This document shows positions 18,501 through 63,754 of a stretch of 64,000 nucleotides of DNA, piece by piece. How positions within the stretch are numbered: the stretch's first letter is position 1; each line of letters begins with the position of its first letter. The stretch lies in the IMG/VR virus record IMGVR_UViG_3300035701_000017, one strand, 5' to 3'. The position numbers and the translations under genes were made by a program. Origin of the DNA: an uncultured virus (IMG/VR IMGVR_UViG_3300035701_000017) (taxonomy: Duplodnaviria > Heunggongvirae > Uroviricota > Caudoviricetes). The notes beneath the pieces are model-generated. The model was not told the DNA's origin. It made no database searches and worked only from the letters and a program-made list of their open reading frames with translations.

Positions 18501-21204
18501 CTTGACCTACAACATTTATTGATAAATCAGGTGCATTACTATGAATAATGATTGTTTGATTTACTAAAGAATTATTCATTGCATAAAATGACACATCAAA
18601 ATCATACGTCTCATTTGGATCAATACTAAACTGATGAATTGATGTCGAAAATGGAAAACTAATAATAACATTAGTAACGAATAATTTTACAGTACCTGAA
18701 TTTTTAAGTCTAATTTTTTGTGCAACAAATGAATTAACTTTTGCAATAAACTTTATTGTATCAGTCATTCTAGTTAATGCTGTTATATTAGCTATTCCCT
18801 CTCCCGTAACATTTACAATCAAAATAGGATTAATAACATCATTTGATAAAATTGTTATTACACCGTTTTGTACACCAAGTTGTTTTGGTGAAAAAACAAC
18901 ACTTATATTATTTAAAGATTTTTTATTTATTGTAACATTAAGCGTTGCTAACTTACTATCATACGTCACCTTTAACGCTTTATTTTTAGCATATATGTTA
19001 AATGTTAAAACTCCACTATTAGTGTTAGCAGAAAATTCAGTACTGTTTACAGGGTCTCCCAAAGTGTATTGCTCACCTGATAAACTATCAACAACAGTTA
19101 TTGAATCCAACATTAATGATGCATTTTTAACTGTAGCAATATATTTTGCATCTAAATCTGAATATGTAACAGTAACATTTTCTTCATGTGATGATTTAAA
19201 ATGAAACACATCATTGTTTGATGTCATTGACACAACCAAATCAGCGTCATTACTATTATTTGTAATAACTACTTCTTGAACTTCGCTAGTGCCAATCGCA
19301 ACCTGCGCAAAATTCATACTATTAGTAGATAATACTATTGTAGGCGAATAAACAAATCCATCATATTGCATAATTGCAGTTGCAGCATACTGTAATAATT
19401 CTCCAACTCTAGCATTAAATTTCAAATAGCTTGCTACTTTTCCTATGCCAGTGCACAATATTGACACAGAAATAGCTACAGATTCACCGGGCAATAATGT
19501 TGCAGGTAAATTATTAGCTGTAATTGTATATGTAGTAACACCTGACAAATCAGTGACAGTTAAGCTGTCAACAACTGCACCATAAAAACTTCTATTAATT
19601 ATTGTTATTTCAGTTGTTGTAGCAATGTCTTTAGTTAAAAAATCATTCTTAATAACATCAGGTATAATTCTTAATGCGTAATTGACACTAACAACTGCTG
19701 TTAAATTAATTATTTCTACAGGATGTGTAATGTCATTGGTCTGCATTATTAATGAATTTGTAATATTACCTTCAACATCACTTGAAAATGAAACATCAAC
19801 AACTGATGAGCTATTTGCAGAAACAATTAAACTATTTGGTACTATTTGAAAATTCAATACATCTTGAATTGTCACAGATAAATCTACAGATTTTGTATTT
19901 GTAATAGTAAACGATAATTTTTTTACTTCACCAAGTTGAACAGTTCCAAAATCAAGAACACTAGTACTCAATTTTATTCCAGGTGATTGAGCTTCTCCTG
20001 AGATACTTATATTATGTGGATTATTATAAGAATTACTTTGAATTACAATGTTGTCTGAGAATATAATTTCGCTTATAGAATCAACACTTATTTGAAGAGT
20101 AAAACTAGTGCCATAAGGTATAACATAAGGATATGTAATTGGAACTGTGAATGTTGTCCCTGTAACAACAGGAAAAACAATATTGTTTAATATAGCATCA
20201 ACAACACCAATATTCGTAATAATAACATCAACAGTCTTTGTAATGTTTAATGAATAAATATCAAGATCAATCACAGTAGTTGAAAAACTTAATACTGGCA
20301 CTGCCAATCCTGATCCACTATAAGTTAAAATTATGTCTCCAGCATTAGTTGATAAAGTCAAATTGCCTAAAATAGCTGTTAATGTCAATGGCGTAAATGT
20401 AATAGTAAACAACTGTGATTGCATTGCTAAAATTTTAACGCTTGCAACATTGGACGTAACTTCAACATCATCTACTGTCACAGACGTCACAACTAAATTA
20501 ACATCTAAATCAGTATTTGTTAATGTAAAGTTTAAACTATTTGGATTGTTTATTGGAACTGATCCATAGCTTAATGTTGATGTTGACAATGAATATGATG
20601 GAATGCTTGCTAAACCAGACACACCGAATGAATAATAGCCGACTGAGTCATTTGTAAATATTTCAATTGTATCATTTTTCAAACCCATGCTAGTAGGGCT
20701 AAATGTAATTGAAATATTAGCAGAAGCACCGCCAGAAAGTTGAAAACTAGTTTGAGCTATTGAAAAATTTGAATTTGTATGTGAAACATTTACAGTTAAT
20801 ACTGCACTATTACTAGATGTATTTGTTATTTGTCTAGTAACTGTAATAGAATCACCGACAGCTAATTTATTAAAATCAATACTGCTAGTATCAATACTGA
20901 CTGTCGGCTCTAACACATTAGCTGTTACATTGATAATTTCATCAGATCCTGCATCATAAGACACTGTAATAGTTCCTGTTGCAGACAACGACGTTGATGC
21001 AGTATATTTAACAGTTATGTTTTTAGAACTACCTGCGTCAATTGGAATTGAAATTGGAGCTATTTCATAGTCTGGGCTTGAGCTAATTATATTAGTTATG
21101 TTTATGGCTGATATACTGTCATTATATATTGTAACAGTTTTAGTTATAACTGAACCAGCAGATAATGAGCCAAAATCTAAATAAGTTGATGATAGTATTA
21201 GCAT
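15577..21204 (-). CDS. Virion protein with about 10-11 ASH/choice-of-anchor-D-like Ig repeats and a helical, Cys-rich C-terminal region
   Basis: Repeats LDFG......T.TITN.....L.V...I.V.FSP...G...I..ND.....V...G.G. Confidence 0.7.
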   Translation of the reverse strand: MLILSSTYLDFGSLSAGSVITKTVTIYNDSISAINITNIISSSPDYEIAPISIPIDAGSSKNITVKYTASTSLSATGTITVSYDAGSDEIINVTANVLEPTVSIDTSSIDFNKLAVGDSITVTRQITNTSSNSAVLTVNVSHTNSNFSIAQTSFQLSGGASANISITFSPTSMGLKNDTIEIFTNDSVGYYSFGVSGLASIPSYSLSTSTLSYGSVPINNPNSLNFTLTNTDLDVNLVVTSVTVDDVEVTSNVASVKILAMQSQLFTITFTPLTLTAILGNLTLSTNAGDIILTYSGSGLAVPVLSFSTTVIDLDIYSLNITKTVDVIITNIGVVDAILNNIVFPVVTGTTFTVPITYPYVIPYGTSFTLQISVDSISEIIFSDNIVIQSNSYNNPHNISISGEAQSPGIKLSTSVLDFGTVQLGEVKKLSFTITNTKSVDLSVTIQDVLNFQIVPNSLIVSANSSSVVDVSFSSDVEGNITNSLIMQTNDITHPVEIINLTAVVSVNYALRIIPDVIKNDFLTKDIATTTEITIINRSFYGAVVDSLTVTDLSGVTTYTITANNLPATLLPGESVAISVSILCTGIGKVASYLKFNARVGELLQYAATAIMQYDGFVYSPTIVLSTNSMNFAQVAIGTSEVQEVVITNNSNDADLVVSMTSNNDVFHFKSSHEENVTVTYSDLDAKYIATVKNASLMLDSITVVDSLSGEQYTLGDPVNSTEFSANTNSGVLTFNIYAKNKALKVTYDSKLATLNVTINKKSLNNISVVFSPKQLGVQNGVITILSNDVINPILIVNVTGEGIANITALTRMTDTIKFIAKVNSFVAQKIRLKNSGTVKLFVTNVIISFPFSTSIHQFSIDPNETYDFDVSFYAMNNSLVNQTIIIHSNAPDLSINVVGQGEYPAMVLPTSFAFDDTALNTTSNKTLTVSNSSNVDLVVELKLTSQYFSITPASMTVLANNSYDIKVSFKPTEVVTYNDVIKIMSDDPLHSQVDFVITGKGVNKPVIEVASKLEFDKTNVRESSQRMLEIFNNGSETLNVTNVVVTENLVSFSVTSSTSISIAPQSSSQITVVFSPKSAPKDYIRGNLKITCNDTAHNIVDVLLKGVGYQPDGEWVSFNLQDMMPDALMSVANGVNNVITPLKVILNLIKQVMNLVKVFLVDSSSALKAILQMIYDLIDKYVQDLGASGLYLLPVFPNVNYYDVNNNSSKFAKFLASVGGGSEVFKQKVVNSFDDIFDTKRPQFSDNGECAAFVIAVDSGNIATIVKGIIALKKIFTSIDWEPDVQEPQSVQAMSGTDITIRWDLPEVVKFNVAGIFNQQKFVDMIYGFEVYRSEKQSVLITASQDYYDSNNQPIAKKGDIIDISTNKKVDPLQPIVKATEFFKSVKDFAVGFVSTGQQPISSIGYSYPDTSASEGKSYFYSIRTMMNETGPFSSLSNEVAATKTKPETIVAGQEFLNRCVNFRCNRVKDKTKLSMTLPEPKVKLIETTGLVIQSKSLFARDKVVPDAGLQQVNNFTVMINSIKIDINNLVVRNVSETERRIAHDKLKIDVKKFYDPDNGPMIWDDSNDTAEGKDQYFEILNKTKLVAGWDLLVVYNNGNTILTISDVSKIGYKSDDIIVVELYENEYKASCIKGMNVFNEIKCNNGTNKQFCTLYSNARCIYHSGTACLNVGNTNTGGRCIPNVTFFDPYTCQDATVGGFVAIANRAHTNDANYCIETTGICAGYRSLSEDTLGPYPNWSSINAQALIKPIEAFIEVLKKWVDRELAGIQSGSETVTQFIDLLARKIEELEKIIDTIQQIVETITSIFSSDVGFHILMIEPASGGSERIKRLIQTAEGGPSSGSDGYTAGLVMLIGGPELKAVYQFLQLFFKK

Positions 21205-47262: not shown

Positions 47263-48468
47263 TTAAATTTGTGTTTTTGAAGTCACTATCGTATATTGAG
47301 GAGTTGGTCTAACAACGAACGGTAAAACACTTTCTACAAGTTGTAATCCAACTTTATAATCAACACCTCTTAATGATTTGCCAAATTGTCTTGAAATTCT
47401 AGCAGTATACTCAGCTTCATCATATTGACCAAGATCCTCAATTTTATTAAGAAATACTCTTTTAATTACTCCTAAAATGGGTTTATAAGCTTCCCATTCA
47501 ACTTCAATAGAAAAAGAAATTTCAGCTAAAAAAGACATTTCATTTGACGTTGCAACTTCATCTTCTTCAGATTCACCACCTAAAGTAATATTATCAACAT
47601 ACAAACCATCATCAACTAGCTTCTCTTGTAGCACAGACCAAACATACATTGCAGTTAAATCTGCCAATTGTTCCTGTGTATCAGTATCTTGTGCGACAAT
47701 AGATAGAGTAACATTCATTTTCCATTTTCCCAAATAAGCACTTGCAACTTCTTGTCTATCAGGATATACTACTACTACTTGTACTCCGCCTTTTTTTAAG
47801 AAATTACCAAATGCTAAAACTACACCCGGAACTGCTATAATATTAACAGTCTCTGGTTCGACATCAAATGAGCCCGTAGTATCTATTATATATTGATAAT
47901 CTATAGTTAATTGACCAAAATCATCGATCGGTTTCAAAAATATAATTTCACCTGTAGTATAGTCAATAGTATATTGATTATCTCTTTGCAATTTTTCTGC
48001 AGTCTCACATAAAATACATTCACTATATGGATTTACACTTTTATTCTTTAAAAATACATGTTTAAATCCATCAGTTTCAATCTCCAAAACCTCATCAGAC
48101 ACAGTCAAATAAGGCTTTACAATGAACTTATTGTCTTCGATCATTTCAATTATATAAAAGCCGGGTTTAACAAGATTTCCAACATTTGCCAAATCTTCTC
48201 TAACCCATTCAATCATTCTGCCAGATTGATTTTTTAATCCTGCCAATGTTGTATAAGAATTTATTGTGCCTTTAAAGTTGTCTAATGATAACTTTATTGA
48301 ATCAGCACTTGACGTCTTAACAACAATAGCATATTTCGGTCTTTCAGTAAATTGAAATTTATTAGTAATAACTAATGCATTATCACCAAAAATAGGATGA
48401 TCAAGGAACAATGCTTGCAGCTCCTTGACAATTATTTTTTTCACGCAATTCGAGATGCGGTAGTACAT
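47263..48468 (-). CDS. Tail completion/terminator-like protein
   Basis: Position between neck and sheath; ERP..AIVVK...LSLDNF.G; W...V.L...AQD. Confidence 0.5.
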   Translation of the reverse strand: MYYRISNCVKKIIVKELQALFLDHPIFGDNALVITNKFQFTERPKYAIVVKTSSADSIKLSLDNFKGTINSYTTLAGLKNQSGRMIEWVREDLANVGNLVKPGFYIIEMIEDNKFIVKPYLTVSDEVLEIETDGFKHVFLKNKSVNPYSECILCETAEKLQRDNQYTIDYTTGEIIFLKPIDDFGQLTIDYQYIIDTTGSFDVEPETVNIIAVPGVVLAFGNFLKKGGVQVVVVYPDRQEVASAYLGKWKMNVTLSIVAQDTDTQEQLADLTAMYVWSVLQEKLVDDGLYVDNITLGGESEEDEVATSNEMSFLAEISFSIEVEWEAYKPILGVIKRVFLNKIEDLGQYDEAEYTARISRQFGKSLRGVDYKVGLQLVESVLPFVVRPTPQYTIVTSKTQI

Positions 48469-49487
48469 GTTGTCTCACATTCATTTTTAATAATCAATGG
48501 CAAAGTGTTTTTATCATGAATTAATTCTAATTCATTTAAATCTTTATTATAAAAATACCATCGATATCGATAACCATTTGTTAATAATCCATATTGACAA
48601 TTTAATGACTTTAAATATTTTTTTAATTGTTTTAATTGATGCTCATTATTTTTTCTAATAAATACTTTTGACTCTATTATTAAATAAGGTTTACTATTCT
48701 CATATAAAACTATATCTGCAAAACATCGTTTATTATAAGGTAATATTATTTTTACTTGCCTTTTTAATTGTGCTTTTTGAAAATATTTATTTAAAAATGG
48801 AATAATTATTTCATTTTCAAGTTTTATTTCATTTTGTCTGTTTTTAATTTTAGATTCAATTAAATTTTTTTGTTCTGATTTTAGAATTTCAAAATTTCTT
48901 TCAATATCTTTCATTCTAAAATTTCTTTGTTTTGCCAAATAAAAAAGCGATATCACGTTAGTTTCATCGCATTTATTTAAAAAATCTAATAAAAACATTT
49001 TGCATTCATTTGTAGGTTTTACGAATCTAGATTCAGCACCCTTTCTAACTCTTTCACAATTTAGTTTGTTTTCTTTAGACCTTTTTTCTGACATCAATTT
49101 AAGCTGTAAACAATTAAATTTATTTCTTGCACTAAGTTTAAAAACTATTTGTCGTATTGACTCACTATTTTCTTTAGTCTTTCCTTTATTCGGTCCTATA
49201 CGTCCAGGTCGGCCTTTGCTTAAATTTACTTCTTTAGAAAATCTTCTGCCTTTATTTGCTTCTGACACTTTTTTCTTTGTAGCATCAGAACAATGTTGAC
49301 CTTCTCCTCTAGATCTAAATTTCCAACCATAATAAGCAAAATTGTTTATAATAGTTCTTCCATGAACATTAAAATGTTTAGAGCATTGTAATGTCGTCCT
49401 TTTATCAATAAAATAAAGTTTGTAAAGTTCATCTTTTGGCAAAATTATAGATGAAATACTATTTATTCTATGATTCATTTTAATCAT
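48441..49487 (-). CDS. Free-standing endonuclease: HTH/NUMOD3-like N-terminus plus HsdR N-terminal-like PD-(D/E)XK domain
   Basis: TKKKVSEANKGRRFS; ADIVLY...PYLIIESK...QLKKY...YGLLTNG. Confidence 0.65.
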   Translation of the reverse strand: MIKMNHRINSISSIILPKDELYKLYFIDKRTTLQCSKHFNVHGRTIINNFAYYGWKFRSRGEGQHCSDATKKKVSEANKGRRFSKEVNLSKGRPGRIGPNKGKTKENSESIRQIVFKLSARNKFNCLQLKLMSEKRSKENKLNCERVRKGAESRFVKPTNECKMFLLDFLNKCDETNVISLFYLAKQRNFRMKDIERNFEILKSEQKNLIESKIKNRQNEIKLENEIIIPFLNKYFQKAQLKRQVKIILPYNKRCFADIVLYENSKPYLIIESKVFIRKNNEHQLKQLKKYLKSLNCQYGLLTNGYRYRWYFYNKDLNELELIHDKNTLPLIIKNECETTCTTASRIA

Positions 49488-49811: not shown

Positions 49812-50837
49812 TTATTCTTCATATTCAGACAATGCTGAGTAAAGCGCGCCTTTTGCAACTGCAAACATTTGATCATTAGCAAACTTTACTTCTTTAATTT
49901 TAAACGGTAATTTAATTTTTTCAATTTCTTGTTTAAATACTTTATCAAATGACATTGCTAATGAAGTTCCACCAGCTAATACAACTGAAATTGGTTGTGG
50001 AAATTCTGGAATATCTTGCATTTCAGACAACTTCTTTTCAAAACATTTTATAACATAAGCGATAAAATTTCTATAAAAAATACTTATTGACTCCTGATAT
50101 CTATCTTTTGGCGCTAATAAATCAACACCTTGCTCTTTAATTGCAGTCATTTTTGCAACTCGTTCACCAATAGCTGCTGCACTGCACTCGTCTATCCAAT
50201 CTCCTGATCTAGACACTGAGAATTCAATTGAAGAAACTCCACGGTATGACAGATTCAAATTCACCATGCCAGCTCCAAAGCTCAACGACAAACCCGTAAA
50301 ACTTTCATCATCTAATTCAGAATAGCATATTGCCCTTGCTTCATTAATAGATTCAGCTTTAAAACCAAATGATTCAATAAATGACTTTAATACATTTTCA
50401 TGATAAATAATGTTATAATTTGCGTCAATTGGTTGAGCTGGTACTGAAAATTTACAAATTTCATTTTCTTTAACAGGCTGACCTAAAACATTTTTAATGA
50501 TAGTTTTTATCATTAATAAAGCTTCCGGCTCTCTTGTACTTATTACACCTTTTTGTAATGGTCTTCTAATTTCTCTTTTAAAAACATTAGCAAAATTAAG
50601 AGCTTCCTGACCTATAACATATAGTAATTTGCCGTCATCCGACTCAATATAATTTGCATTATTTGTAGTCAACATGTTTCTAGCAAATTTGTCATTTTCA
50701 ATATCAAAAAATGCGTCACGCTGAGTACGAATTTTTATTTCATCATTTTGTTGTATTATAGCACTATTAAAAAATGCTGTTCCACAATCAATTCCGATTC
50801 CAAGTTTTCTGCTGCATTTGTCAACTTCATTTAACAT
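49812..50837 (-). CDS. Actin-like ATPase (MreB/MamK/ParM superfamily)
   Basis: Phosphate-1 GIDCGT, connect-1 NEARA, phosphate-2 SFGAGM, adenosine LAGGTS, connect-2 AVAKGAL; AAGGAG RBS before ATG 50837. Confidence 0.85.
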   Translation of the reverse strand: MLNEVDKCSRKLGIGIDCGTAFFNSAIIQQNDEIKIRTQRDAFFDIENDKFARNMLTTNNANYIESDDGKLLYVIGQEALNFANVFKREIRRPLQKGVISTREPEALLMIKTIIKNVLGQPVKENEICKFSVPAQPIDANYNIIYHENVLKSFIESFGFKAESINEARAICYSELDDESFTGLSLSFGAGMVNLNLSYRGVSSIEFSVSRSGDWIDECSAAAIGERVAKMTAIKEQGVDLLAPKDRYQESISIFYRNFIAYVIKCFEKKLSEMQDIPEFPQPISVVLAGGTSLAMSFDKVFKQEIEKIKLPFKIKEVKFANDQMFAVAKGALYSALSEYEE

Positions 50838-51969
50838 TTTGACACTCCTTCTTAATTGTTTTATCTTTTTCATTTTCATATATAGTCCTTAAATTTAATG
50901 AATCTATATTTTTAATAGTTGAATCAATTGTACTAATACAAATATCTATATCATTATTAATTTGACTTTCCCAAAATCTTAAAACAATAAAACCATTAAG
51001 AGTTAATTTATGACTTACATATTCATCTCGAGCATGTATTTGTTCAGCTGTTTTATTCATCGTTGAAAAATAATAATTTTTTTGATATTTTAATGGATTT
51101 GCATGCCAATAATCACCATCAACAAAAATTATAATCTTTCTTGACTTATCATACTCATCAATAGAAAAATGTTCATGTTTACAAGTTATTATGCATTCAG
51201 TTTCAAAATTTTGATTTTTTATTTTATCAACTATTTTATTCTTTAATTTAGCGTGTACTTTTGAATATGTTAAATGTTTTTTGTCAAATCTTTTCTTCAT
51301 TATTTCTGGTACTTGCAATACATGTTTATAACCATATCTTTTTAAATTTGTAGAAATAATCTTATTTTTTATATCAATATTTTGAGCAGGATTTTTAACT
51401 CCATATAGTTCTTGATTTGTTTTTTCAATTTTTTGTCTAATAATTAATGTTTTATTAGGATTTGTTACTCCGTATTTTTTTGTCCATGTTATCTTTAATT
51501 TATCTACATTTTCAAATGGATTTTTATATCCATATTTTTTTAAATTAGTTTGTTGCGCTTTATTATAAATATCTTTATTTTGTAAAGGATTATCAACTCC
51601 ATAACGTTCTTGACAAGTTTTTACTCTTTTTAATTCATCGCCATTGTCACTTTTAACTAAAAAACAATTATCTACATTGTACCTCAATCGTATTGTTTTT
51701 AGCGTCTTTTCATTTCTTGTTTTAAAAAATGCAGATGATTTACTAGTACCTTTGCATTGATCACAAATTACAGTTCCAGAATAAAATTTAATTTTAACAA
51801 GATTACTACATATTTTACACTTCTTATTAACAAACGTATTCTTCAATTTTTCTTTTAATTGTAGTTTTAATTGTTTATATTCATCAACAAACAAATGTCT
51901 ACATTTACTACACCACGACAAACGTCTAACTTTATTCTTTGCACATTTTTGACAAAATTTTGTATTCAT
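50827..51969 (-). CDS. Free-standing Vsr/DUF559-like homing endonuclease with T..(K/R)YG..NP repeats
   Basis: FSIDEY...IFVDGDYWH...RD...GFIVLRFWE. Confidence 0.75.
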   Translation of the reverse strand: MNTKFCQKCAKNKVRRLSWCSKCRHLFVDEYKQLKLQLKEKLKNTFVNKKCKICSNLVKIKFYSGTVICDQCKGTSKSSAFFKTRNEKTLKTIRLRYNVDNCFLVKSDNGDELKRVKTCQERYGVDNPLQNKDIYNKAQQTNLKKYGYKNPFENVDKLKITWTKKYGVTNPNKTLIIRQKIEKTNQELYGVKNPAQNIDIKNKIISTNLKRYGYKHVLQVPEIMKKRFDKKHLTYSKVHAKLKNKIVDKIKNQNFETECIITCKHEHFSIDEYDKSRKIIIFVDGDYWHANPLKYQKNYYFSTMNKTAEQIHARDEYVSHKLTLNGFIVLRFWESQINNDIDICISTIDSTIKNIDSLNLRTIYENEKDKTIKKECQNVK

Positions 51970-54232: not shown

Positions 54233-57007
54233 TTAAAAAAGCGAGTTTTCAAAATTTAACGCTCGTCCCTTTTCATCATTTCTACCAGGACCCTTATCAG
54301 TCCTCAATCTATCATTCTCAACTATCTCTCCATCAACTATAATAGGATCTTCAGTATAATGAGCATGAGATTTTCTTAATCCTATATTATGCTTATAATT
54401 AAATAAATTTAATGATGTAACAAACTCATATCTTATATCAGTTGAATCAACATACTCAACATCAAAATGTTGTTGAGTAGCTATGCCTTTAACATCAGGC
54501 GTAGATATAGGTCCAATAGCATAAACTTGAGCTTTTCTTCTTATAATAAAGTCTCTTTGAGTTATAGTTGGCGATATAGTTGTCCATGTCTTTTCCATGT
54601 TTTCTAATTTCATACCTCGTTCAGTCATACGAATTTTTTGTTCAGACTGAAACGGTGATATCCTAATTTCAAACGGCCCTTCATATCCTCCAACAAATCC
54701 AGTGCCCCAACAAAGCTTACATGAACCAACTTGAGGCTGAACATGTGTACGTTCATTTCTTTTATAACATTCACATTTTGTTCCAGTAGTTTTTCTAATA
54801 AATAATAATACTCTTTCGCCTGCATTATCAAGTAACCAATTATTTCTTCTTATTGCTTCTAAATACATATAATCCAACTTTTCAGCGGATAAAGTTTCAG
54901 CCGGACACCACTCAAGTCTTGTTTCACTACCATCTTCTAATATAGCTGTAACTTTATAATATGGAAAACTTGAAAGATTCATTTTTAATGTATTAATTTC
55001 GTACATATACGACACAGTAACAATTGAACTAATCGTCGGCACAACTGGTTCAACCCACAATTTTCTAACTTCATCATATTGCCTGTCAATTTGTAATACC
55101 ACTCGACCTTTCAAACCATCAACAGACTTCACAATTGCACTTTTACCATCAACTATTACGTCAACATCAAAAGTTTGATCTGTATACAATCTATTAGTTC
55201 TATTAGTTACAATCGGCGCATGTCTAACATCAAACCAATACTCATTTCTCTCATTTTTAATTAACGGCAAATAAGCTTTTCCTACATTAACATTGAAATA
55301 CAAAAATTTAACATTTACACTTGTATTAGGACTCTTATTATAAAACTTAACTTGTAAATTATCTTTTGAAAAATTAAGATATGAATCTAATAACACCCAA
55401 GTAGAACCATCATTATAATAAGTTGAAACATCAGTCGTTGATCTAATTATTCGTATTTTAGCTTTCATATCTGAATTTAAAACTTCAACTCTACTTACTT
55501 CCTGTGAATCCACAACTAATGAACTAACATAATAATCAGTAGCTTCACGTCTAACTTTTGATAACTTAACATACGAAAACTCACTATATGAAACTATAAA
55601 TGACATCTCAGAAAAATTTATTGAATCAGTTATCGGCCATTCAACTAGCTCATATTGCGTCTCAATATCAAAATCATTCTTCAATATAAACTTAGACTGA
55701 AAATAACAATCTTTATAACCATATACATCAATAAAATTTATACCATTAGACTGACTAAATAATCGATCATCATCAATAGCTTCCCATTGATTAGCATTTA
55801 CAATTTCACCTGTAAAATCAGTACTTACTTCAACTGGTGTTGACACTCTAAATTGATCTGACACATTTTCTTTAACGACTATTGTATTTAATTTTTGATC
55901 TCTATAAAAAGTAGTTGTTACTAGTGTTTTATTTATTTTAACAAAAGTTTTATCACTTTTTGAATAAACATCATTTGACGTTAACACATCATGTGAAACT
56001 ATATTTTGCAATGATTGCTCATCAGTTTGAGATCTGTAAATATTATAACCAACAACATCATCGCGCATTTGCATCATATCATCCCAACAAATATCTGCTG
56101 TATACTTAATATATGGAAAACTAACAAAAACATTTGTTGGCACTATATTATTTTCAAGTGGGTAAATAGTATACGACTGAGTCTTTACTATCTCTTGATT
56201 ACCAAACTCATCAACTGCAAAATATTTTAATACAACGTTATCAATAATTGCTAAAACTACCGGTGAAGCATCTTTATCTGTATAATGATTAATAGTTGGC
56301 GTTGACCCATCAAGAGTATAATAGATAGTTGCAGGCTTACTTGATGTCAACGTCACAAATTTTTCTTCATTATAATTTCCGCCACCAACACTTGCAGTTG
56401 TCACAGGCGTCACATTATCATTTACATAAGTGTCAAATGAATATAATTCAACATGAACAATATCAGAATTATCATCTTCATCAATACCAAAAAACTTTAA
56501 TGTTGTATTCTGTAATATAACTATTGGTACAGTATATTGAGTTGAAGCATTTGTTGGATATGAACCATCAACTGTATAATAAATTGTTGTATTTGGTTTA
56601 CTACTAATTAATGCAACTGATTGTTGTGAATTATATGTGGATCCTTTTGGATTTGCAATTACGACAGGCAATATTGTATCATTAACAATAATCGTAAAAC
56701 TATAATTGTCAGTGTATTGCTGAGATGCATTATCATTAACTGAAATCAAAACATCTATTATTTGCCCTCTAGTAAATATTGTAATATGTTGAATATAAAC
56801 ATCATATCCTCTAGCATTATTGTTTATTGCACCTGAAAAATTTGTTTGAAATACACCGTTAATAATAGCATCAACACCATCAACTTTCACATTAATAGTA
56901 TTTCTATTTGCAATAGATGTTTCATTGCGTATTTCAAAATAAATAGGAGCAGTTCTTGATACTCCCGCTGTATCTTTTTCTGGTGAATAACCTTGAAATA
57001 CTATCAT
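54233..57007 (-). CDS. Head closure/neck protein with N-terminal Ig and chitobiase-C-like domains
   Basis: IYYT.DGS.P repeats; C-terminal GERV.LF.RK..G..C.C...C..CWGTGF.GGY.GP. Confidence 0.55.
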   Translation of the reverse strand: MIVFQGYSPEKDTAGVSRTAPIYFEIRNETSIANRNTINVKVDGVDAIINGVFQTNFSGAINNNARGYDVYIQHITIFTRGQIIDVLISVNDNASQQYTDNYSFTIIVNDTILPVVIANPKGSTYNSQQSVALISSKPNTTIYYTVDGSYPTNASTQYTVPIVILQNTTLKFFGIDEDDNSDIVHVELYSFDTYVNDNVTPVTTASVGGGNYNEEKFVTLTSSKPATIYYTLDGSTPTINHYTDKDASPVVLAIIDNVVLKYFAVDEFGNQEIVKTQSYTIYPLENNIVPTNVFVSFPYIKYTADICWDDMMQMRDDVVGYNIYRSQTDEQSLQNIVSHDVLTSNDVYSKSDKTFVKINKTLVTTTFYRDQKLNTIVVKENVSDQFRVSTPVEVSTDFTGEIVNANQWEAIDDDRLFSQSNGINFIDVYGYKDCYFQSKFILKNDFDIETQYELVEWPITDSINFSEMSFIVSYSEFSYVKLSKVRREATDYYVSSLVVDSQEVSRVEVLNSDMKAKIRIIRSTTDVSTYYNDGSTWVLLDSYLNFSKDNLQVKFYNKSPNTSVNVKFLYFNVNVGKAYLPLIKNERNEYWFDVRHAPIVTNRTNRLYTDQTFDVDVIVDGKSAIVKSVDGLKGRVVLQIDRQYDEVRKLWVEPVVPTISSIVTVSYMYEINTLKMNLSSFPYYKVTAILEDGSETRLEWCPAETLSAEKLDYMYLEAIRRNNWLLDNAGERVLLFIRKTTGTKCECYKRNERTHVQPQVGSCKLCWGTGFVGGYEGPFEIRISPFQSEQKIRMTERGMKLENMEKTWTTISPTITQRDFIIRRKAQVYAIGPISTPDVKGIATQQHFDVEYVDSTDIRYEFVTSLNLFNYKHNIGLRKSHAHYTEDPIIVDGEIVENDRLRTDKGPGRNDEKGRALNFENSLF

Positions 57008-57402
57008 TTATTTACCTCAATCACTACTTGACTAATTATTTTGTCGTCATCATTAAGTAAAAGCGTGTTCAAATAATCTTTAATCTTTAACCAATTTATT
57101 TCACACATTGCTCTATTATCAATGTACATATCAGCATATATCTTTGGTGATGTTTCAAAATCTAAAAAGTCAGCATTTTCATTTATAGCATGAAACACAA
57201 TTGCATTTTTATTTAAAAAATCCATTGCATTTTGCAAACACTTTTCATTTCTACATGTCCACAAAATAACATAAAACTTATCATACATCCAATTAATCAC
57301 TTCTTTAGCATTTGGCATCAACTCAAACTCAGTTGCTAAATATGCCTTATCAAGTTCTTTTACTAGCGTTCCGTCAAAATCAACAGCTATTATTTTTTTC
57401 AT
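57004..57402 (-). CDS. HAD-superfamily phosphatase-like protein
   Basis: IIAVDFDGTL, ILWTCR, KIYADMYIDNR. Confidence 0.8.
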   Translation of the reverse strand: MKKIIAVDFDGTLVKELDKAYLATEFELMPNAKEVINWMYDKFYVILWTCRNEKCLQNAMDFLNKNAIVFHAINENADFLDFETSPKIYADMYIDNRAMCEINWLKIKDYLNTLLLNDDDKIISQVVIEVNK

Positions 57403-57905
57403 AAAACTTTTATCTCACAAGGTTCTTTCTTTTTACCTTTAAATACCCAATCTTTAAAATCATCCATTGAAAGCTGAACTATTGAATCTAAACCTTTCCA
57501 ATTTTTATCATAATTAGCAAGATATGCTTTTCTTGCTTTATCTTCAGTCTCAAATCCTAACATCACTTTATGTTCATCAAATCTTTTATTCTCAGGATTA
57601 ACTTGATTAACAACAAATACTGGCAAACCTTTTTTTGCATTTGTGTTAAGAAAAACGTCAACATGATCTTTATCTTTACCTTCGGTACCTTTTATATAGC
57701 CATAATGATGTTTAAGCACATTTGACCATTCTTTTCCATCTCTAGATACTCCACTCCTTGTTGATCCTTTTGGATTTTCAATAGAAATGTCAAGACCTTC
57801 AAACTTACGATGCTGTTTTTTATAATTACCGGCATCTTTCTGAGCGTCTGACAATTCTTTTGCAATTTTTAAAAAATCTGCTTGAATAATACTTAAATAT
57901 TTCAT
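57399..57905 (-). CDS. Stand-alone inorganic pyrophosphatase-like (InPase, polyvalent-protein type) domain
   Basis: AGNYKK...GL.ISIENPKGS.RSG...W...HYGYI.GT.GKD.DHVDVF...FDEHKVMLGF. Confidence 0.75.
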   Translation of the reverse strand: MKYLSIIQADFLKIAKELSDAQKDAGNYKKQHRKFEGLDISIENPKGSTRSGVSRDGKEWSNVLKHHYGYIKGTEGKDKDHVDVFLNTNAKKGLPVFVVNQVNPENKRFDEHKVMLGFETEDKARKAYLANYDKNWKGLDSIVQLSMDDFKDWVFKGKKKEPCEIKVL

Positions 57906-59230
57906 ACTTTCTCCATTATAAAACTTAACTTTTCATTTAATTCAATAAAACACTTTTCAGGATCATCATTAAAATGCACTTTAATCGGCTCAACTATTTT
58001 ATACTTTAAATTTAACCGTTTATATAATGATAATTTCCCGCACCAATCAATATCATCTTTTCTTCTCAAACCATCCATCTCTATATGCAAATCAAAATCA
58101 GGCAAATATTGATCAGCATGCTTTAAAGATTCTCCTATCCTTTTCTGAGGTATATGCCTAATATTCTTTGATATTAACCACTCTTCTAAATCTTGCTCAT
58201 TCAATGACCACCACTTATGACCATCAGAAGAAATGCCATAATAGCCATAATGTTTCTTTTTATTAAATTCTACTACTTTTTTATTTTTCTTTGGTTTGCA
58301 ATCTAAACAAATATATCTTCTGGATTTTGCACTTACTTTAAATTCATTATGACATTTTGAGCATTTTCTATATGAGCAATTGTCACTTTTAACATATATT
58401 TTAAGCTCGTCTTTTTTGCTATTACAATCTTCACAGGACATAAATGTCGCGTATGGATCTTTAACAATTATATCTTTACCACAAATTTTACAATGTCTAG
58501 TATAATCTATTAAATATTTTGGATCTTTTAAGCAATTTGAACAAGTATAATGTCGTTTTTTTAAATCTCTTTCAACTTCTTCTTTAGTACCACAATATTG
58601 ACAAGTTCTATAATGTTTTCTATCAAAATAACTAAGCTTTTTTAATCTTTTATTATCTTCTTTTTTCTGTTTACATTCTTTACAATATAAAACTGTTGCA
58701 TGTCCTGCAGTCTCAATATCTTTTGAACATTCTAAACATTTTCTAATAAAAACTTTAACTTCATTTTTCAGTTCTTGTTTTTTATCTTCACATTCTTTAC
58801 AATTAATGACTGTTGCAAATCTATTAATTGTTTCTACATCTTTACCGCACGTCTTGCAATGTCTAGTATAAACTTTTTGAGATAATTTTATTTTTTCTAT
58901 TTCTTCATTTTCTTCTCGTTTACAATCAAAACATACAGTCGTATTTCCAGCAGGAAATTTATCCCTATGTAATATTTGTTTACATCTACTGCATGCAGTA
59001 TGAGTTTTATTAAATTGTACCTTATCTTTACATTCAGAACAATGATAAGCTCTTGAACTGGGATCCTTCTTAAATTCTTTTCCACAATTAGTGCATATAT
59101 TTGTCGACTTCTCTTGCAATCTTTTCTGTCTTTGCTTCTCTTCACACTCATCACATTTAAAATAAGTACAATACTTTTCTACTTCAACTTCTTTTCCACA
59201 ATCTTTGCATTTGTAATTAAATAAAGTCAT
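57902..59230 (-). CDS. Free-standing endonuclease with many tandem CxxC ribbons and a C-terminal nuclease domain
   Basis: C..CGK...C..C repeats; SLNE..LEEWL...ADQYLP...IEMDG. Confidence 0.7.
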   Translation of the reverse strand: MTLFNYKCKDCGKEVEVEKYCTYFKCDECEEKQRQKRLQEKSTNICTNCGKEFKKDPSSRAYHCSECKDKVQFNKTHTACSRCKQILHRDKFPAGNTTVCFDCKREENEEIEKIKLSQKVYTRHCKTCGKDVETINRFATVINCKECEDKKQELKNEVKVFIRKCLECSKDIETAGHATVLYCKECKQKKEDNKRLKKLSYFDRKHYRTCQYCGTKEEVERDLKKRHYTCSNCLKDPKYLIDYTRHCKICGKDIIVKDPYATFMSCEDCNSKKDELKIYVKSDNCSYRKCSKCHNEFKVSAKSRRYICLDCKPKKNKKVVEFNKKKHYGYYGISSDGHKWWSLNEQDLEEWLISKNIRHIPQKRIGESLKHADQYLPDFDLHIEMDGLRRKDDIDWCGKLSLYKRLNLKYKIVEPIKVHFNDDPEKCFIELNEKLSFIMEKV

Positions 59231-59305: not shown

Positions 59306-60604
59306 TTAGCCCATCTGAATTCTATTGAATCGTGACCCAGTCCATCTCTTAATGCTCTGGCCTGACGTGTTGTGCACTACGATATTATTTGCTATGTAAT
59401 TGCAGTACGACGGCCTCATTTGCAAGTCGTAAGTCTCAAATTTTCCAGAATAATCAATATCAATAATTTTTGCTAATTTCAATACATTTTTATTATTTTT
59501 AACCCATATTTTCTCATTTAAATCTAAATCCTGTAACATTACTTCACTATTGTCATCATAAAAGAATTTATGAGTCTTTGTGCATTCAATTTCATAATCT
59601 TTACTCAATTTTATCTTATATAAGTCCTGTTTTCCATTGCTCCAAATTGCCATCACATCATTTACAAACAATTTATTTGTTGCAAGATCCATAGAGAGAC
59701 TATGTGTCATCTTTTTATTATATGCTTCCTCAATTGTAATGTCTTGATTAAGATTTGTGTCTCGTACACGCGAGCATGCACGAATGCACCAAGGACCTAA
59801 CGACGCGCCTCTAGAATATGTGTACCTATCCTGCCGGAGTCCGACAATGCATTTTACTCTCTTTTTTGCCATTTCTAATTGTTTATCTATAGTCGATTGC
59901 ATCTGATTCGCTAAACCAGAGTACTTGTCTGAACGTCTAATGTCTAAACTAACACCTGCAAGCGAATAATTGAATTCTTCTCCAGCCCATAAAATTGCTA
60001 GATCATATAGTGCGTATACTTGAGCTTCCATTAGCATTAATGGCTCCCAAGCTGCTGGAAATGACATTAATTCGTATTCTGTTGCAGGTGGCCATAAATT
60101 TATATAATTTGATGCATCTTCTAAATGATTTGCTAATTGATCGTCAGGCCATTTATAACCCCGAGTCTCTGTAAAACCGGCGATTTCTTGTTCAGAAGAT
60201 GGAGGACTAAAACTGTTCGAAACCACTATCTGTGATGCTAAAACAAAGTTTTGATTATCTTTAACAGATAAATCATACATGTATTGTTTGGAATCAATTT
60301 TTTCAATTGTAGCATTTAATAATTTCGAGTTGTTGTTAATTATGCATATAAAATTGTTAGATTCAATAGGCTTAACTTTTTTAATTTCATTACTTTGAAA
60401 TGTATATAGACTATGATCTTCTGTTACAATCACACTTTTATTATTTTCAAACGTCACTTTATAAATATCTTTTAATACTGTAATATGTTCAAAGACATCA
60501 ATAATTGGTTTATATTCAACAGTGCCAATGTTATTAATGGATTTAATTAATAATGCTTTATTATTAAAACAATCTTTTATTTTTTTAATTTTATTATCAA
60601 GCAT
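59306..60604 (-). CDS. Second half of a fractured head-tail adaptor-like gene: IntC (130 aa), extein (142 aa), mini-intein (140 aa), extein (20 aa)
   Basis: AAGGAG RBS and ATG at 60604; two sets of intein blocks; extein W.DDQL..HL..A...IN..PP resembles adaptor proteins. Confidence 0.8.
   Translation of the reverse strand: MLDNKIKKIKDCFNNKALLIKSINNIGTVEYKPIIDVFEHITVLKDIYKVTFENNKSVIVTEDHSLYTFQSNEIKKVKPIESNNFICIINNNSKLLNATIEKIDSKQYMYDLSVKDNQNFVLASQIVVSNSFSPPSSEQEIAGFTETRGYKWPDDQLANHLEDASNYINLWPPATEYELMSFPAAWEPLMLMEAQVYALYDLAILWAGEEFNYSLAGVSLDIRRSDKYSGLANQMQSTIDKQLEMAKKRVKCIVGLRQDRYTYSRGASLGPWCIRACSRVRDTNLNQDITIEEAYNKKMTHSLSMDLATNKLFVNDVMAIWSNGKQDLYKIKLSKDYEIECTKTHKFFYDDNSEVMLQDLDLNEKIWVKNNKNVLKLAKIIDIDYSGKFETYDLQMRPSYCNYIANNIVVHNTSGQSIKRWTGSRFNRIQMG
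59369..59788 (-). mobile_element. Cis mini-intein, 140 aa (W|CIRAC...CTKTHKF...TYDLQM...NYIANNIVVHN|T)
   Basis: Cys1, block B TxxH, block F YDL, block G HN followed by Thr+1; no endonuclease domain. Confidence 0.9.
60215..60604 (-). mobile_element. Split intein C-fragment, 130 aa (blocks B, F, G; ends VVSN|S)
   Basis: VTEDHSL, MYDLSV..NQNFV, VVSN|S; no block A upstream in this ORF. Confidence 0.85.
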
Positions 60605-60733
60605 ATACTGTCTCCTTACGTGCGTTAATATTTTGTAAAATTTTATCAACGCATGATATGATATTATTATTGATTTCCTTTTCCCAAAATCTTAATACAA
60701 TCCATCCTCTATTAGTAAGATATGTGGTTTTGC

Positions 60734-60814
60734 ATTTATCTTTTGACAATCTCTTTTTACAACGTTTACATTTAATAGTGTTTCTACAATAGTCACAAAT
60801 TCTTCCTTTATTGT
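60734..60814. repeat. Exact 81-bp direct repeat, copy A (copy B at 61260-61340)
   Basis: atttatcttttgacaatctc...cacaaattcttcctttattgt is identical at both sites. Confidence 0.95.
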
Positions 60815-61259
60815 ATAAAATCCTTTATCTTGCAATATTTTAAATAATTTAATTGCTATACTTGAAATATATGATTGGCCACTGATGCCACATAATGATG
60901 ATGAAATTTTCATTCTATTTCTATAAAATTCAGAATATATAGCATCTTTACTATATTCATTAACAAATTCTTGATACGTCATTTTAAAATATTTTTTTAT
61001 ATGCGATGCAACCATAAGTTCAACTTCTCTTTTACACTTAGAACATTTAATTTTATTGCCTGTAATTTTATTATTTTCAATTTCAATGCATTCGTTGCAT
61101 ATAAATCTTTCAGGATGTTTAAATTATATCTTTTAATCACAATAACTTCTTTATTGCACTTTATACAAATGATATGTCTTTGTTTTCTATTATCTCTTGC
61201 TATCTGTTTATTTTTAATTGCAATATTTAGACAATCATTACAAACTAAACTATTAGTAA

Positions 61260-61340
61260 ATTTATCTTTTGACAATCTCTTTTTACAACGTTTACATTTA
61301 ATAGTGTTTCTACAATAGTCACAAATTCTTCCTTTATTGT
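61260..61340. repeat. Exact 81-bp direct repeat, copy B
   Basis: Identical to 60734-60814; encodes NKGRICDYCRNTIKCKRCKKRLSKDK. Confidence 0.95.
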
Positions 61341-61607
61341 TTGTTTCACTATTGCAATATCTACAATGACAAACGTTCATTCTCTTTTTTATACTCTTAA
61401 CTACTTGTCTTCTTTTTGATTGACATTCATTACATATTTTCATTCCATAATTAAATTCAGACTCTTTAATTTTTAGTTGATTACACTTTTTGCATAATTT
61501 TAATCTATTCTTTCGTTTGTCTTTACAAAAATTACAAATCTGATTTTTCCCACTAAATTCATTAATTGTCTTTAATTGATTACATTTTTTGCATTTCTTT
61601 TCCATTT

Positions 61608-62111
61608 TTATTCCTGCATTTTAATAATTTCATATAAATCTTTTATTGTCAAAGAAATTTCTTCACCATCTGCTAAAACTGTAAGTAACTCATTACCATC
61701 AATAGAATAATCTCTGTCAGGGTTTACGTCCCTTAATTTGACTCTTAATTTATGAAGAAGTCTTTTAATTTGATCCGGATATTCTTCATTTATTAATGTA
61801 AGCTTCGAGACAATATCAAATTCTTCAGGCCATGATGTAATTGTGCTCGTTGCAGTTTCTTTTATTTTCCAGACAATTTTATGAAGGCCTATTGATTCAT
61901 CAACTGAAATTTGCCATGGTGCAAAATAGCTGCCAACAGCAAATTTAATAGGTAATCTATCAGTACCACCAATTAACACCGGTGATCCAGAAGTCACATC
62001 AAAAAGATCAAATGTCAAGTTATATGGATCTTTTAAATGACCTGATCTATCGTAAATAAATACGTTTAGATTGTCTTTTGTAGTAGTATCGCCACGTCTT
62101 AATGCATTCAT
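61608..62111 (-). CDS. First half of the fractured gene: 135-aa N-extein plus 32-aa split intein N-fragment
   Basis: ...LRDVNPDRDY|SIDGNELLTVLADGEEISLTIKDLYEIIKMQE*; block A pattern S-I-D-G-x-E-x-L-x-V and IKDLY. Confidence 0.8.
   Translation of the reverse strand: MNALRRGDTTTKDNLNVFIYDRSGHLKDPYNLTFDLFDVTSGSPVLIGGTDRLPIKFAVGSYFAPWQISVDESIGLHKIVWKIKETATSTITSWPEEFDIVSKLTLINEEYPDQIKRLLHKLRVKLRDVNPDRDYSIDGNELLTVLADGEEISLTIKDLYEIIKMQE
61611..61706 (-). mobile_element. Split intein N-fragment, 32 aa, Ser1
   Basis: Block A and following strand-helix, then a stop; supplies the part missing from 60215-60604. Confidence 0.8.
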
Positions 62112-62126
62112 TTTAATGTCCTTTTA

Positions 62127-62660
62127 TTAACAAAATGGATAATTGCATGTTCCACTTTGTCGTCTAAAATTTACAGAGCTTGATCCACACGTTATGCCAT
62201 GTTGATAATATGGTGCGTAAGCATATTGCCAACAAGCGTTTTTATAACCATAATCAGGCATGTTGCCTGTTCCAGATTGTCTTTTGCTATTGTCAAAGCC
62301 TGTTGGTCCATGTGATGCCTTACATGCTTCAACTGGTTGTTTATACACAGAAAATTCATCAGCTTTAGATATTAATTGACTAAATTGTGTTTCTTGAATT
62401 TCCCATACTATTCTAAATGTTCCTGCTTTCAATGTGTCAATCTTTGACATCCATGCAAAGTTAGCATAATATTCACCAACACTAAACCTTGATGCCTGTT
62501 GACCACTTTGTACAACTTGTCCGCAAACACCATAAATAGTATATGTTACTGAATAAGGGTCAAACAATTGACCATTTACATAAGTATAAATAGGAATCAA
62601 TTTAGTTGCTGCTAAAGCATCTAAATCATATCCTTTAATTTGAGATCCATTAAAATCCAT
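62127..62660 (-). CDS. Small virion beta-sandwich paralogue
   Basis: DPYSVTYTIY...VGEYYA...G..RIVW...DEF.V. Confidence 0.6.
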   Translation of the reverse strand: MDFNGSQIKGYDLDALAATKLIPIYTYVNGQLFDPYSVTYTIYGVCGQVVQSGQQASRFSVGEYYANFAWMSKIDTLKAGTFRIVWEIQETQFSQLISKADEFSVYKQPVEACKASHGPTGFDNSKRQSGTGNMPDYGYKNACWQYAYAPYYQHGITCGSSSVNFRRQSGTCNYPFC

Positions 62661-63035: not shown

Positions 63036-63407
63036 TTACATTATTATTTTTTCTCTAGCATAGGTTGATCTGCAAAATTCACCAGCATATTTAGTTGGCA
63101 TAATAACATCAAAAGATTCAGATACCATCTGTAATTCTGTATCTTGAAATTTTTTATAAGACCATTGAATTATATGTCTGCCTGGTCTAAAAACTTTTGG
63201 ATCTAAATGAATAGGTACAAAATAAGAACCGTTATCAAATTTCATTGGAAGACTATTTATCGTTTGTCTAATAATTTCTTGTCTACCATGAGTACAATCA
63301 AACATAGTGTATGAAACATAATATGGATCAATTGGCATAACACCGTCACTATTGTAAAAGAAAACTTTTAAATCTTCTTTAGTTAATAATTTGCCTAAAT
63401 AGATCAT
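63036..63407 (-). CDS. Small virion beta-sandwich paralogue
   Basis: DPYYVSYTMFD...GSYFVP...G.H.IQW...ESFDV. Confidence 0.6.
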   Translation of the reverse strand: MIYLGKLLTKEDLKVFFYNSDGVMPIDPYYVSYTMFDCTHGRQEIIRQTINSLPMKFDNGSYFVPIHLDPKVFRPGRHIIQWSYKKFQDTELQMVSESFDVIMPTKYAGEFCRSTYAREKIIM

Positions 63408-63409
63408 TA

Positions 63410-63754
63410 TTAATCCTTAACAAACTTAACAACCATATCTGAATAAATTGACGCTGGCACAACCATATAAGAATCTTCAATTTCACAAATTGTTGTATCA
63501 ACAGGATGAGTTCCTGTAGCTGTTACATAATAAGTTTCATTTTCTGGAACTGTATCTGGAATTGTCCAATTTGACGTATATTCGCCTGTAGATATATGAA
63601 CTAATGGAGTAGATACAACGTCTACTGTCTTGACATTATTTACAAAATGGCAAATAGTATATGACGCATTTAATACGTCTATAGGCTCTTCTGTATTTAC
63701 GTCAATGAAAATAAATCTAGAATCAGCAATATCTCCTCGTCTAAATTGTCTCAT
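63410..63754 (-). CDS. Small virion beta-sandwich paralogue
   Basis: FRRGD...PID...YTI...TGEY...W.IP. Confidence 0.6.
   Translation of the reverse strand: MRQFRRGDIADSRFIFIDVNTEEPIDVLNASYTICHFVNNVKTVDVVSTPLVHISTGEYTSNWTIPDTVPENETYYVTATGTHPVDTTICEIEDSYMVVPASIYSDMVVKFVKD

Follow-up and report, generated by a model that had tools for sequence, protein, structure and literature searches.

How does a phage obtain a whole head-to-tail adaptor from a gene that is broken in two, with half an intein on either side of the break? The question is raised by a 64,000-nucleotide (64-kb) stretch of DNA from an uncultured member of the Caudoviricetes (IMG/VR record IMGVR_UViG_3300035701_000017), referred to below as the window, in which all genes lie on the minus strand and the G+C content is about 30%. 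In the region 59306..62111 (minus strand) a gene with the marks of an adaptor gene occurs as two same-strand open reading frames (ORFs), each made up of an extein part and an intein half (Table 1). The upstream ORF passes from the N-extein into the N-terminal intein half (IntN) and stops there, while the downstream ORF begins with the C-terminal intein half (IntC) and continues into the C-extein, which is itself interrupted by a second, contiguous mini-intein. The answer that we consider very probable is that this is a fractured adaptor gene, the two products of which are rejoined by an atypically split intein with serine at its first position (Ser1) and directly behind it (Ser+1), trans-splicing yielding a product of 297 amino acids (aa).

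The layout is that of a fractured gene, with intein halves on two ORFs, an intervening endonuclease gene and uninterrupted homologues elsewhere. The original prediction had read a block-A intein start followed by a stop in the ORF at 61608-62111 and, downstream, an ORF that starts with IntC behind its own AAGGAG; both observations were reproduced, as were all its coordinates and lengths. Summed, the host parts give 135 + 142 + 20 = 297 aa, just as long as the intein-free homologues, and the N-extein (E 6e-45 with our own N-extein hidden Markov model, HMM) is collinear with residues 1-135 of these homologues. It had also been anticipated that intein-free relatives would run straight through the DRDY/SFSPP junction, and such relatives were found as single genes of 296-300 aa that are collinear with the exteins at both junctions. 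One of them, P0002 (297 aa, 97% identical, intein-free), reads ...RDVNPDRDY-HFAPPSSEQ... across the first junction and ...LGPW-TSGQSIKRW... across the second. No match to the region was found among GenBank phages by blastn.

A word-indexed search with the 142-aa C-extein part 1 gave 52 proteins at E<=0.001 from 118 candidates. The intein family is absent from 35 of the 52, and 34 of these 35 are 292-300 aa long. All 17 intein-bearing matches were read: 11 are ORFs opening with IntC, each at the same Met in the alignment, three (P0040, P0050 and P0052) carry a contiguous intein at the window's site, and three have the C-terminal intein alone. An exhaustive HMMER search with the C-extein returned 159 clusters at E<=0.001 and 77 at E<=1e-10, most of them about 295-305 aa long and matched at about residues 137-280, so that an N-terminal part of the right size precedes the match; some clusters match in two stretches (2-83 and 82-141 of the C-extein), which reveals a further intein site inside the C-extein. 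The search with the N-half found four proteins, three of which consist of an N-extein and a Ser1 IntN with a stop behind it, while the other one is a fragment with an intein-free junction. In contigs drawn from two collections, both halves at the window's site, DRDY↓S (the arrow marks the insertion point), lie on one contig in eight distinct lineages (window/L001, L024, L025, L026, L037, L038, L040 and L043). The same split thus recurs in eight diverged lineages at this site, and splits are found at two further sites in the adaptor family.

Ser1 in block A, TxxH in block B, block F, the terminal Asn and the +1 Ser together make up the motif set of a class-1 split intein, and Ser1 with Ser+1 gives, as judged from sequence, the pattern of a cysteine-less intein. 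Compared with sequences in the PDB, IntC matches the inteins of Mja KlbA (E 8e-8), TFIIB (1.2e-5), Npu DnaE (0.003) and gp41-1 (0.011), and its alignment to solved inteins begins at about their residue 50, as expected of a HINT domain without its first strands. The 11 IntC sequences show 46-51% overall identity to the window's ORF, and M1, H40, T61, E62, D63, H64, D111, N130 and S131 are invariant in all of them; block G ends in AHN in seven, VSN in three and VCN in one. At the window's site IntN starts with Ser in 8/8 split alleles, is 31-36 aa long and shares 35-69% identity with that of the window, and purine-rich motifs precede the aligned IntC start in other split alleles. Position 136 of the adaptor, the +1 position, is Ser in the 11 IntC-first ORFs, the three contiguous alleles and the eight split loci, whereas the 53 intein-free sequences have His (38) or Arg (11) in 49 cases and Ser in one. 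The contiguous 140-aa mini-intein is recognized by Pfam (PF14890, E 4.2e-25 on the ORF, best stretch 302-427); its site is likewise filled in P0009, P0030, P0033 and P0035, and empty in P0002.

The contiguous allele P0040 offers a view of the unbroken intein. Its model (mean predicted local distance difference test, pLDDT, 72) has two strands and a helix at 155-163 (...LYEIV) followed by a loop at 164-169, and it is exactly in this loop that the split alleles stop and restart. Among PDB chains the model has 68 matches at E<=0.001, led by mini-inteins at template-modelling (TM) scores of 0.69-0.76, the best match being the cysteine-less Aes123 PolB1 intein (Foldseek E 2.4e-9, TM 0.69, 21% identity). 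The break after helix alpha1, with IntC extending from block B onwards, places the window's intein in the short-IntN, S2-type class (IntN of 15-37 aa with motif N1 alone), which agrees with the atypical split, resembling that of terminase inteins, proposed originally. The two pieces are also predicted to form the HINT fold together. When IntC and IntN, each with five extein residues, were co-folded, a score of 0.81 was obtained (runs 0.80, 0.88 and 0.81), the best of three controls reaching 0.03; the runs agreed in at least 82% of contacts, the partner pLDDT was at least 79, and the contacts include TEDH, block F and the region of the C-terminal Asn. In the calibration of the tool, the mark was reached by 116/157 solved complexes and 2/215 mismatched pairs, although split-intein complexes are already among the solved structures and the pass may therefore reflect likeness to them.

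The host protein was expected to be a structural, head-tail adaptor-like protein, and the models point the same way. The AlphaFold model of P0002, for which 53 intein-free relatives were used (mean pLDDT 82.7), shows an Ig/macroglobulin-like sandwich at residues 1-103, and in an all-against-all VIA-align comparison with 48,161 chains its residues 113-270 match more than a dozen phage adaptor or neck chains at Z 8-11.8 (Pa223 11.8, cyanophage A4 11.5, SU10 11.0, T4 gp13/gp14 11.0, and lower down the PhiM1 adaptor at 8.4 and the Mu neck subunit at 8.2). Values of 8-12 for helical domains alone are not decisive, but adaptor chains top the list and the matches span the whole domain. Whole-model Foldseek of the two-domain protein gave low TM scores and mixed matches, with a single adaptor, from a portal-adaptor complex, at rank 2; the VIA search separated the two domains that Foldseek had left mixed. 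The profile phrog_17327, 'head-tail connector protein', is matched by 7/53 relatives (best E 8.6e-6) and by neither of the window's own adaptor pieces, and the adaptor-family profile found nothing meaningful among PDB sequences. GenBank phages with this family are three very large ones, Tunturi_5, an uncultured 485-kb record (L109) and Bacillus phage G, and the homologue in the 309-kb Tunturiibacter phage Tunturi_5, 27% identical over 90% of the protein, is annotated as a head-tail connector protein. Tail sheath, tape measure and baseplate genes follow the adaptor gene in the window. The host protein is accordingly modelled as having a head-to-tail adaptor fold, and its gene stands in a contractile-tail structural module. 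The break after residue 135 falls inside the adaptor domain, so that neither half has a complete fold.

From this anatomy we infer a course of events and an expression of both halves that may be outlined as follows. A mini-intein with serine nucleophiles would first have occupied the site ...NPDRDY↓[H/S]F.PP in a single 297-aa gene. A free-standing endonuclease gene of the Vsr/DUF559 type would then have been inserted into the loop behind the intein's first helix (S2), bringing with it a stop that ends the upstream piece as well as the ribosome-binding site and ATG from which the downstream piece is read. Two proteins would now be made, N-extein (135 aa) with IntN (32 aa), and IntC (130 aa) with the C-extein and its contiguous mini-intein. 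The HINT fold of IntC, incomplete by itself, would take up IntN, the class-1 pathway (Ser1, TEDH, terminal Asn, Ser+1) would join ...DRDY to SFSPP..., and the second mini-intein would remove itself in cis. The predicted product is a 297-aa adaptor that has Ser at position 136, where His is usual. Later the endonuclease would have died in this phage, leaving an element that can no longer home, and the split intein would be kept because the adaptor is needed.

That the halves trans-splice is what sequence and models make most likely, yet several features weigh against it. The window's allele has Ser rather than His before the terminal Asn (VVSN), and Glu precedes the candidate NX His40 where 9/11 alleles have Lys or Arg; the equivalence of His40 to His68 of PolB16 is a sequence pattern only, IntC residues 36-42 contacting IntN in the model. 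Ser1/Ser+1 chemistry has been described as slower than Cys chemistry. Three stand-alone Ig-like-domain paralogues of the adaptor N-terminus lie just upstream (own HMM, E 2.5e-15, 4.7e-21 and 6e-7), an arrangement also present in relatives, and the unspliced N-half might therefore have a role of its own. The absent penultimate His and the Glu before His40 would suit a non-covalent clasp in which IntN and IntC dock and hold the adaptor pieces together in an allele that no longer splices, and the co-fold supports docking rather than splicing as such. We nevertheless regard such a clasp as improbable, because all residues that form or resolve the ester intermediates are kept (Ser1, T61/H64, D111, N130 and Ser+1) and because Ser stands at +1 in intein-bearing alleles in place of the His or Arg of nearly all intein-free ones; a +1 Ser tied to the presence of the intein makes sense only if the nucleophile is used.

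Still less probable than a clasp is that insertion of the endonuclease killed the adaptor gene, what is left being a decaying pseudogene whose function is supplied by another gene. The endonuclease has itself decayed, and since the window is limited to 64 kb of a genome whose nearest record is estimated to be 10% complete, a second, intact adaptor gene may exist elsewhere, which would weaken the case for splicing; within the window our own C-extein HMM finds a single adaptor copy. Both ORFs are open and have start signals, however, and the split has been kept open in eight lineages that have diverged to 35-69% IntN identity. The ratio of nonsynonymous to synonymous substitution rates (dN/dS) of IntC is well below 1, at 0.09-0.36 in the 14 closest pairs of alleles at the window's site whose ORF starts with IntC, although with dS of 0.8-2.9 in these pairs, that is, saturated, the ratio is rough and shows only that dN is far below dS.

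In the trans-splicing reading the endonuclease is a former partner of the intein, and its traces are plain. The predicted remnant between the halves was recovered: PF04480/DUF559 matches at E 3.3e-7, though with the C-terminal 40 residues of the remnant alone (Pfam positions 69-108 of 109), and the whole is collinear with the intact endonucleases of relatives. In relatives of the window the endonuclease is of the Vsr/DUF559 type, as judged from PF04480 and PF03852 matches on the ORF of L009. The three frames of the remnant extend over 61605..60997 (zinc-ribbon repeats), 61015..60692 and 60749..60597 (DUF559 C-terminus). As mapped by tblastn of the intact L024 and L025 endonucleases, residues 13-174 of L024 correspond to 61608..61126 in the window, residues 174-247 to 61123..60917 in a different frame, and residues 420-466 to 60758..60609 in a third, with a frameshift near 61123-61126; for residues 248-419, the nuclease core, tblastn found no counterpart in the window. 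The window has no intact nuclease core in one ORF, the last 45 or so residues being all that is left. A full endonuclease ORF is kept between the halves in L024, L025, L038, L040 and L043, while L037 has no endonuclease there and a gap of 142 nt.

At the scar of the absent core lies one copy of an exactly repeated 81-bp sequence. The nearest public record (L001/G001, 47 kb) is without the 526-bp stretch that leads from the first copy to the second, which gives a gap between the halves of 481 nt compared with 1007 nt in the window, and is otherwise identical over the aligned intervening region, the IntC ORF being 100% identical. In sequencing run X2 a low-depth contig has one extra base behind 61123 that would restore the endonuclease frame there, which suggests that less-decayed copies of the endonuclease still circulate, and the inter-repeat contig has a depth of 3.9 compared with 24-28, as a mixture of the long and the short form might give. 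In this phage the endonuclease is dead, and the population varies in how far the gene has decayed. Contig coverage is absent at 60816-61220 in run X1 and upstream of about 60000 in X3, and an 81-nt unitig of X1 fits two places. Both ORF ends are identical in contigs from two sequencing studies, one of which is possibly the window's own source, so the stop after IntN is not the error of a single assembly. That the stop and the insert are artefacts of assembly or sequencing, the intein being contiguous in reality, is highly improbable, for although contigs of X1 and X2 end at the repeat and there are two forms with a length difference of 526 bp, which makes the region hard to assemble, the stop and the IntC start lie outside the repeat and are covered without difference by contigs of the two studies, and the same split is found in L001/G001 and seven further lineages.

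Table 1 Features of the fractured adaptor locus and its upstream neighbours (positions in the window)
Feature	Position	Strand	Remarks
Ig-like paralogues of the adaptor N-terminus	62127-62660, 63036-63407, 63410-63754	-	found with own HMM
N-extein, 135 aa, ending ...NPDRDY	61707..62111	-	Ig-like domain and first adaptor-domain helices
IntN, 32 aa, SIDGNELLTV...IKDLYEIIKMQE	61611..61706	-	Ser1, block A; two strands and helix alpha1
Stop TAA ending the N-half ORF (62111..61608, 167 aa)	61608..61610	-	directly after IntN
Decayed homing-endonuclease gene, three frames	60597..61605	-	between the two halves, about 1 kb
81-bp direct repeat, copy 1	61260-61340		inside the zinc-ribbon part of the remnant
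81-bp direct repeat, copy 2	60734-60814		at the scar of the absent nuclease core; exactly identical to copy 1
AAGGAG ribosome-binding site of the IntC ORF	60612..60617	-	7-nt spacer to ATG; lies within the 3'-terminal part of the endonuclease remnant
IntC start codon ATG	60602..60604	-	sequence reading
IntC, 130 aa	60215..60604	-	candidate NX-type His40, block B TEDH, block F MYDLSV..N.NF, block G VVSN; then +1 Ser
C-extein part 1, 142 aa	59789..60214	-	remainder of the adaptor domain
Second mini-intein, contiguous, 140 aa	59369..59788	-	Cys1, TKTH, VVHN, +1 Thr; site LGPW↓T
C-extein part 2, 20 aa (TSGQSIKRWTGSRFNRIQMG), and stop TAA	59306..59368 (20 aa = 59309..59368)	-	sequence reading

Intein sites in the adaptor family fall in its most conserved motifs, ...LRDN↓NPDRNY↓HF.PP, EEF↓.YS and LGP.↓T/S, and Tyr135 is kept in 49/53 sequences. 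A short-IntN split occurs at three places in the relatives: at the window's DRDY↓S; four residues upstream at LRDN↓C..↓SPDRNY, with Cys1 (L011, L014, L016 and the 485-kb GenBank record); and further downstream at ..DEF↓S. Adaptor genes in three pieces, with two split inteins, are found in L014, L016 and L086. At the ..DEF↓S site, 12 distinct IntC sequences (L015, L017, L060, L072, L074, L075, L081, L082, L084, L085, L086 and L088) share a single open frame with a Vsr-like endonuclease, no stop intervening; this arrangement is possibly a step on the way to an intein in which the endonuclease is embedded at a non-canonical position. Other alleles at this site, in L045 and L065, have no endonuclease and gaps of 16-23 nt. 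In the 485-kb uncultured phage record, which carries no annotation, the adaptor is encoded by two ORFs, the second of which starts with IntC. A quick tree with approximate likelihood-ratio (SH-aLRT) support sorts the inteins by site, and at the window's site it mixes contiguous with split alleles, with weak support from few columns and with a 'split' label that includes ORFs cut upstream by a contig end. Pfam, run on six ORFs of other host genes with related inteins, named the intein alone.

Splicing may also be used rather than merely tolerated, the inteins serving as a post-translational timer of head completion; we hold this to be an unlikely extension of the trans-splicing reading. The head would then join the tail only after twelve adaptor copies had each completed one slow serine-type trans-splicing and one cis-splicing reaction. 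Such a timer would account for the persistence of the split in many lineages whose endonuclease has decayed or been lost, and for the inteins that a single 297-aa neck protein has collected at four sites. A gate on virion assembly of this kind, also raised in the original prediction, is speculation.

Several other genes of the window (all on the minus strand) deserve mention. The 442-aa ORF directly downstream of the adaptor (57902-59230) is rich in CxxC zinc-ribbon repeats that weakly resemble those in the endonuclease remnant (E 3e-6), and Pfam matches nothing in its C-terminal region (...DFDLHIEMDG...); the ORF is possibly a free-standing homing endonuclease of another type. A 568-aa ORF at 571-2277 with ROS/MucR-type and NUMOD3 motifs weakly matches the DNA-binding part of Vsr-like endonucleases; at least two more genes of the window are endonuclease-like. 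The ORF at 49812-50879 belongs to the actin-like Volactin family (Pfam PF25216, E 1.8e-70); it is flanked (48441-49487 and 50827-51969) by an ORF with an HSDR_N domain and a free-standing DUF7487/DUF559 endonuclease gene, the latter overlapping its start. In the tail module, an ORF of 1875 aa (15577-21204) contains ASH/Cep192/HYDIN-type Ig-like repeats (E down to 1e-52) and is probably a fibre or decoration protein. The InPase domain is usually embedded in giant phage virion proteins; here it occurs as a stand-alone protein (PF18823, E 1.2e-58) with an adjoining phosphoheptose-isomerase-like ORF (57399-57905 and 57004-57402).

In the published descriptions drawn on here, fractured genes have so far been those of DNA-metabolism enzymes and a terminase, the short-IntN break being the single exception among them, and the present locus carries both the fractured gene and the short-IntN break over to a structural protein of the virion, in very large phages. 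The adaptor family further provides, at one and the same spot, a natural series of intein-free, contiguous and split alleles, the last with a live, a dead or no endonuclease, to which the neighbouring site adds endonucleases fused in frame to IntC, so that the life cycle of an intein-endonuclease partnership can be read from sequence. For protein chemists it offers dozens of diverged candidate inteins of the putative Ser1/Ser+1 (or Thr+1) type with N-pieces of 31-36 aa.

How does the system compare with known ones? As to the host protein, T4 gp13/gp14, SU10, PhiM1 and the Mu neck subunit share the adaptor fold with residues 113-270, whereas the present family adds the N-terminal Ig/macroglobulin-like domain; gp165 of Bacillus phage G has the adaptor part only. 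The original prediction knew of no split intein in this host class, and a literature search for inteins in adaptor, connector or neck proteins likewise found none. A survey of actinobacteriophage inteins lists minor capsid proteins among the hosts, with no mention of adaptor, connector or head-to-tail proteins in the portion consulted.

The gene layout is shared with the fractured genes of gp41-1, gp41-8, NrdJ-1 and IMPDH-1, which have Vsr-like or GIY-YIG endonucleases. These canonical cases are described as DNA-metabolism enzymes broken between N4 and C2, with IntN of 88-105 aa and IntC of 33-54 aa. According to the parts of Dassa et al. 2009 (PMC2677866) cited here, fractured genes occur in eight enzyme types, the exception in position being a terminase broken 'at an unusual point', likewise as two phage ORFs with a free-standing endonuclease gene between them. 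Its C-part of 122 aa lacks only motif N1, as does the 130-aa IntC here, both holding every other N-terminal motif. That type became GOS-TerL (IntN 37 aa, Ser1/Cys+1) and AceL-TerL (25 aa, Cys1/Cys+1), and the terminase inteins, with IntN of 25-37 aa, are reported to be split after helix alpha1 (S2), as is the window's with its 32 aa. GOS-TerL shares Ser1 with the window's intein and differs in its +1 Cys, while AceL-TerL differs at both positions; the host is a terminase rather than a head-to-tail adaptor, and the endonuclease of the window is dead. The likeness consists in split position and layout, by published description, and no TerL intein appeared among the PDB sequence matches of IntC.

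In nucleophiles the closest parallels lie among polymerase inteins. PolB16 OarG (Pasch et al. 2023, PMC10189870) is, like the intein described here, naturally and atypically split with Ser1 and Ser+1, and it has an extra conserved His (NX motif) upstream of block B, to which the His40 invariant in 11/11 sequences here may correspond. That paper states that the His preceded by Lys/Arg is conserved only in Ser1 inteins and that Lys/Arg is invariable in the motif. PolB16 is split after strand beta2 (S1), with a 15-aa IntN, in a DNA polymerase, whereas the present break follows alpha1, with a 32-aa IntN, in a structural protein; the window's IntC also has two non-catalytic cysteines. The Aes123 PolB1 or CL intein (PDB 9hth), the best structural match of the contiguous allele, is of the Ser type and, as described, canonically split in nature, with an engineered short-IntN form and a different host protein. 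Similar motifs, SVDG.. and VTEDH, have been described in the PolB split intein of a jumbo Pseudomonas phage. The excerpt cited from a 2026 paper divides atypical natural splits into those after strand beta2 (VidaL, PolB16) and those after helix alpha1 (the TerL inteins), and calls natural cysteine-less atypically split inteins nearly absent and wanted, one being known and more candidates lacking; the combination seen here, a split after alpha1 with Ser1 and Ser+1, is not listed in that excerpt. The locus is thus of a known kind, the fractured gene, now with serine nucleophiles and in a structural protein of a large contractile-tailed phage.

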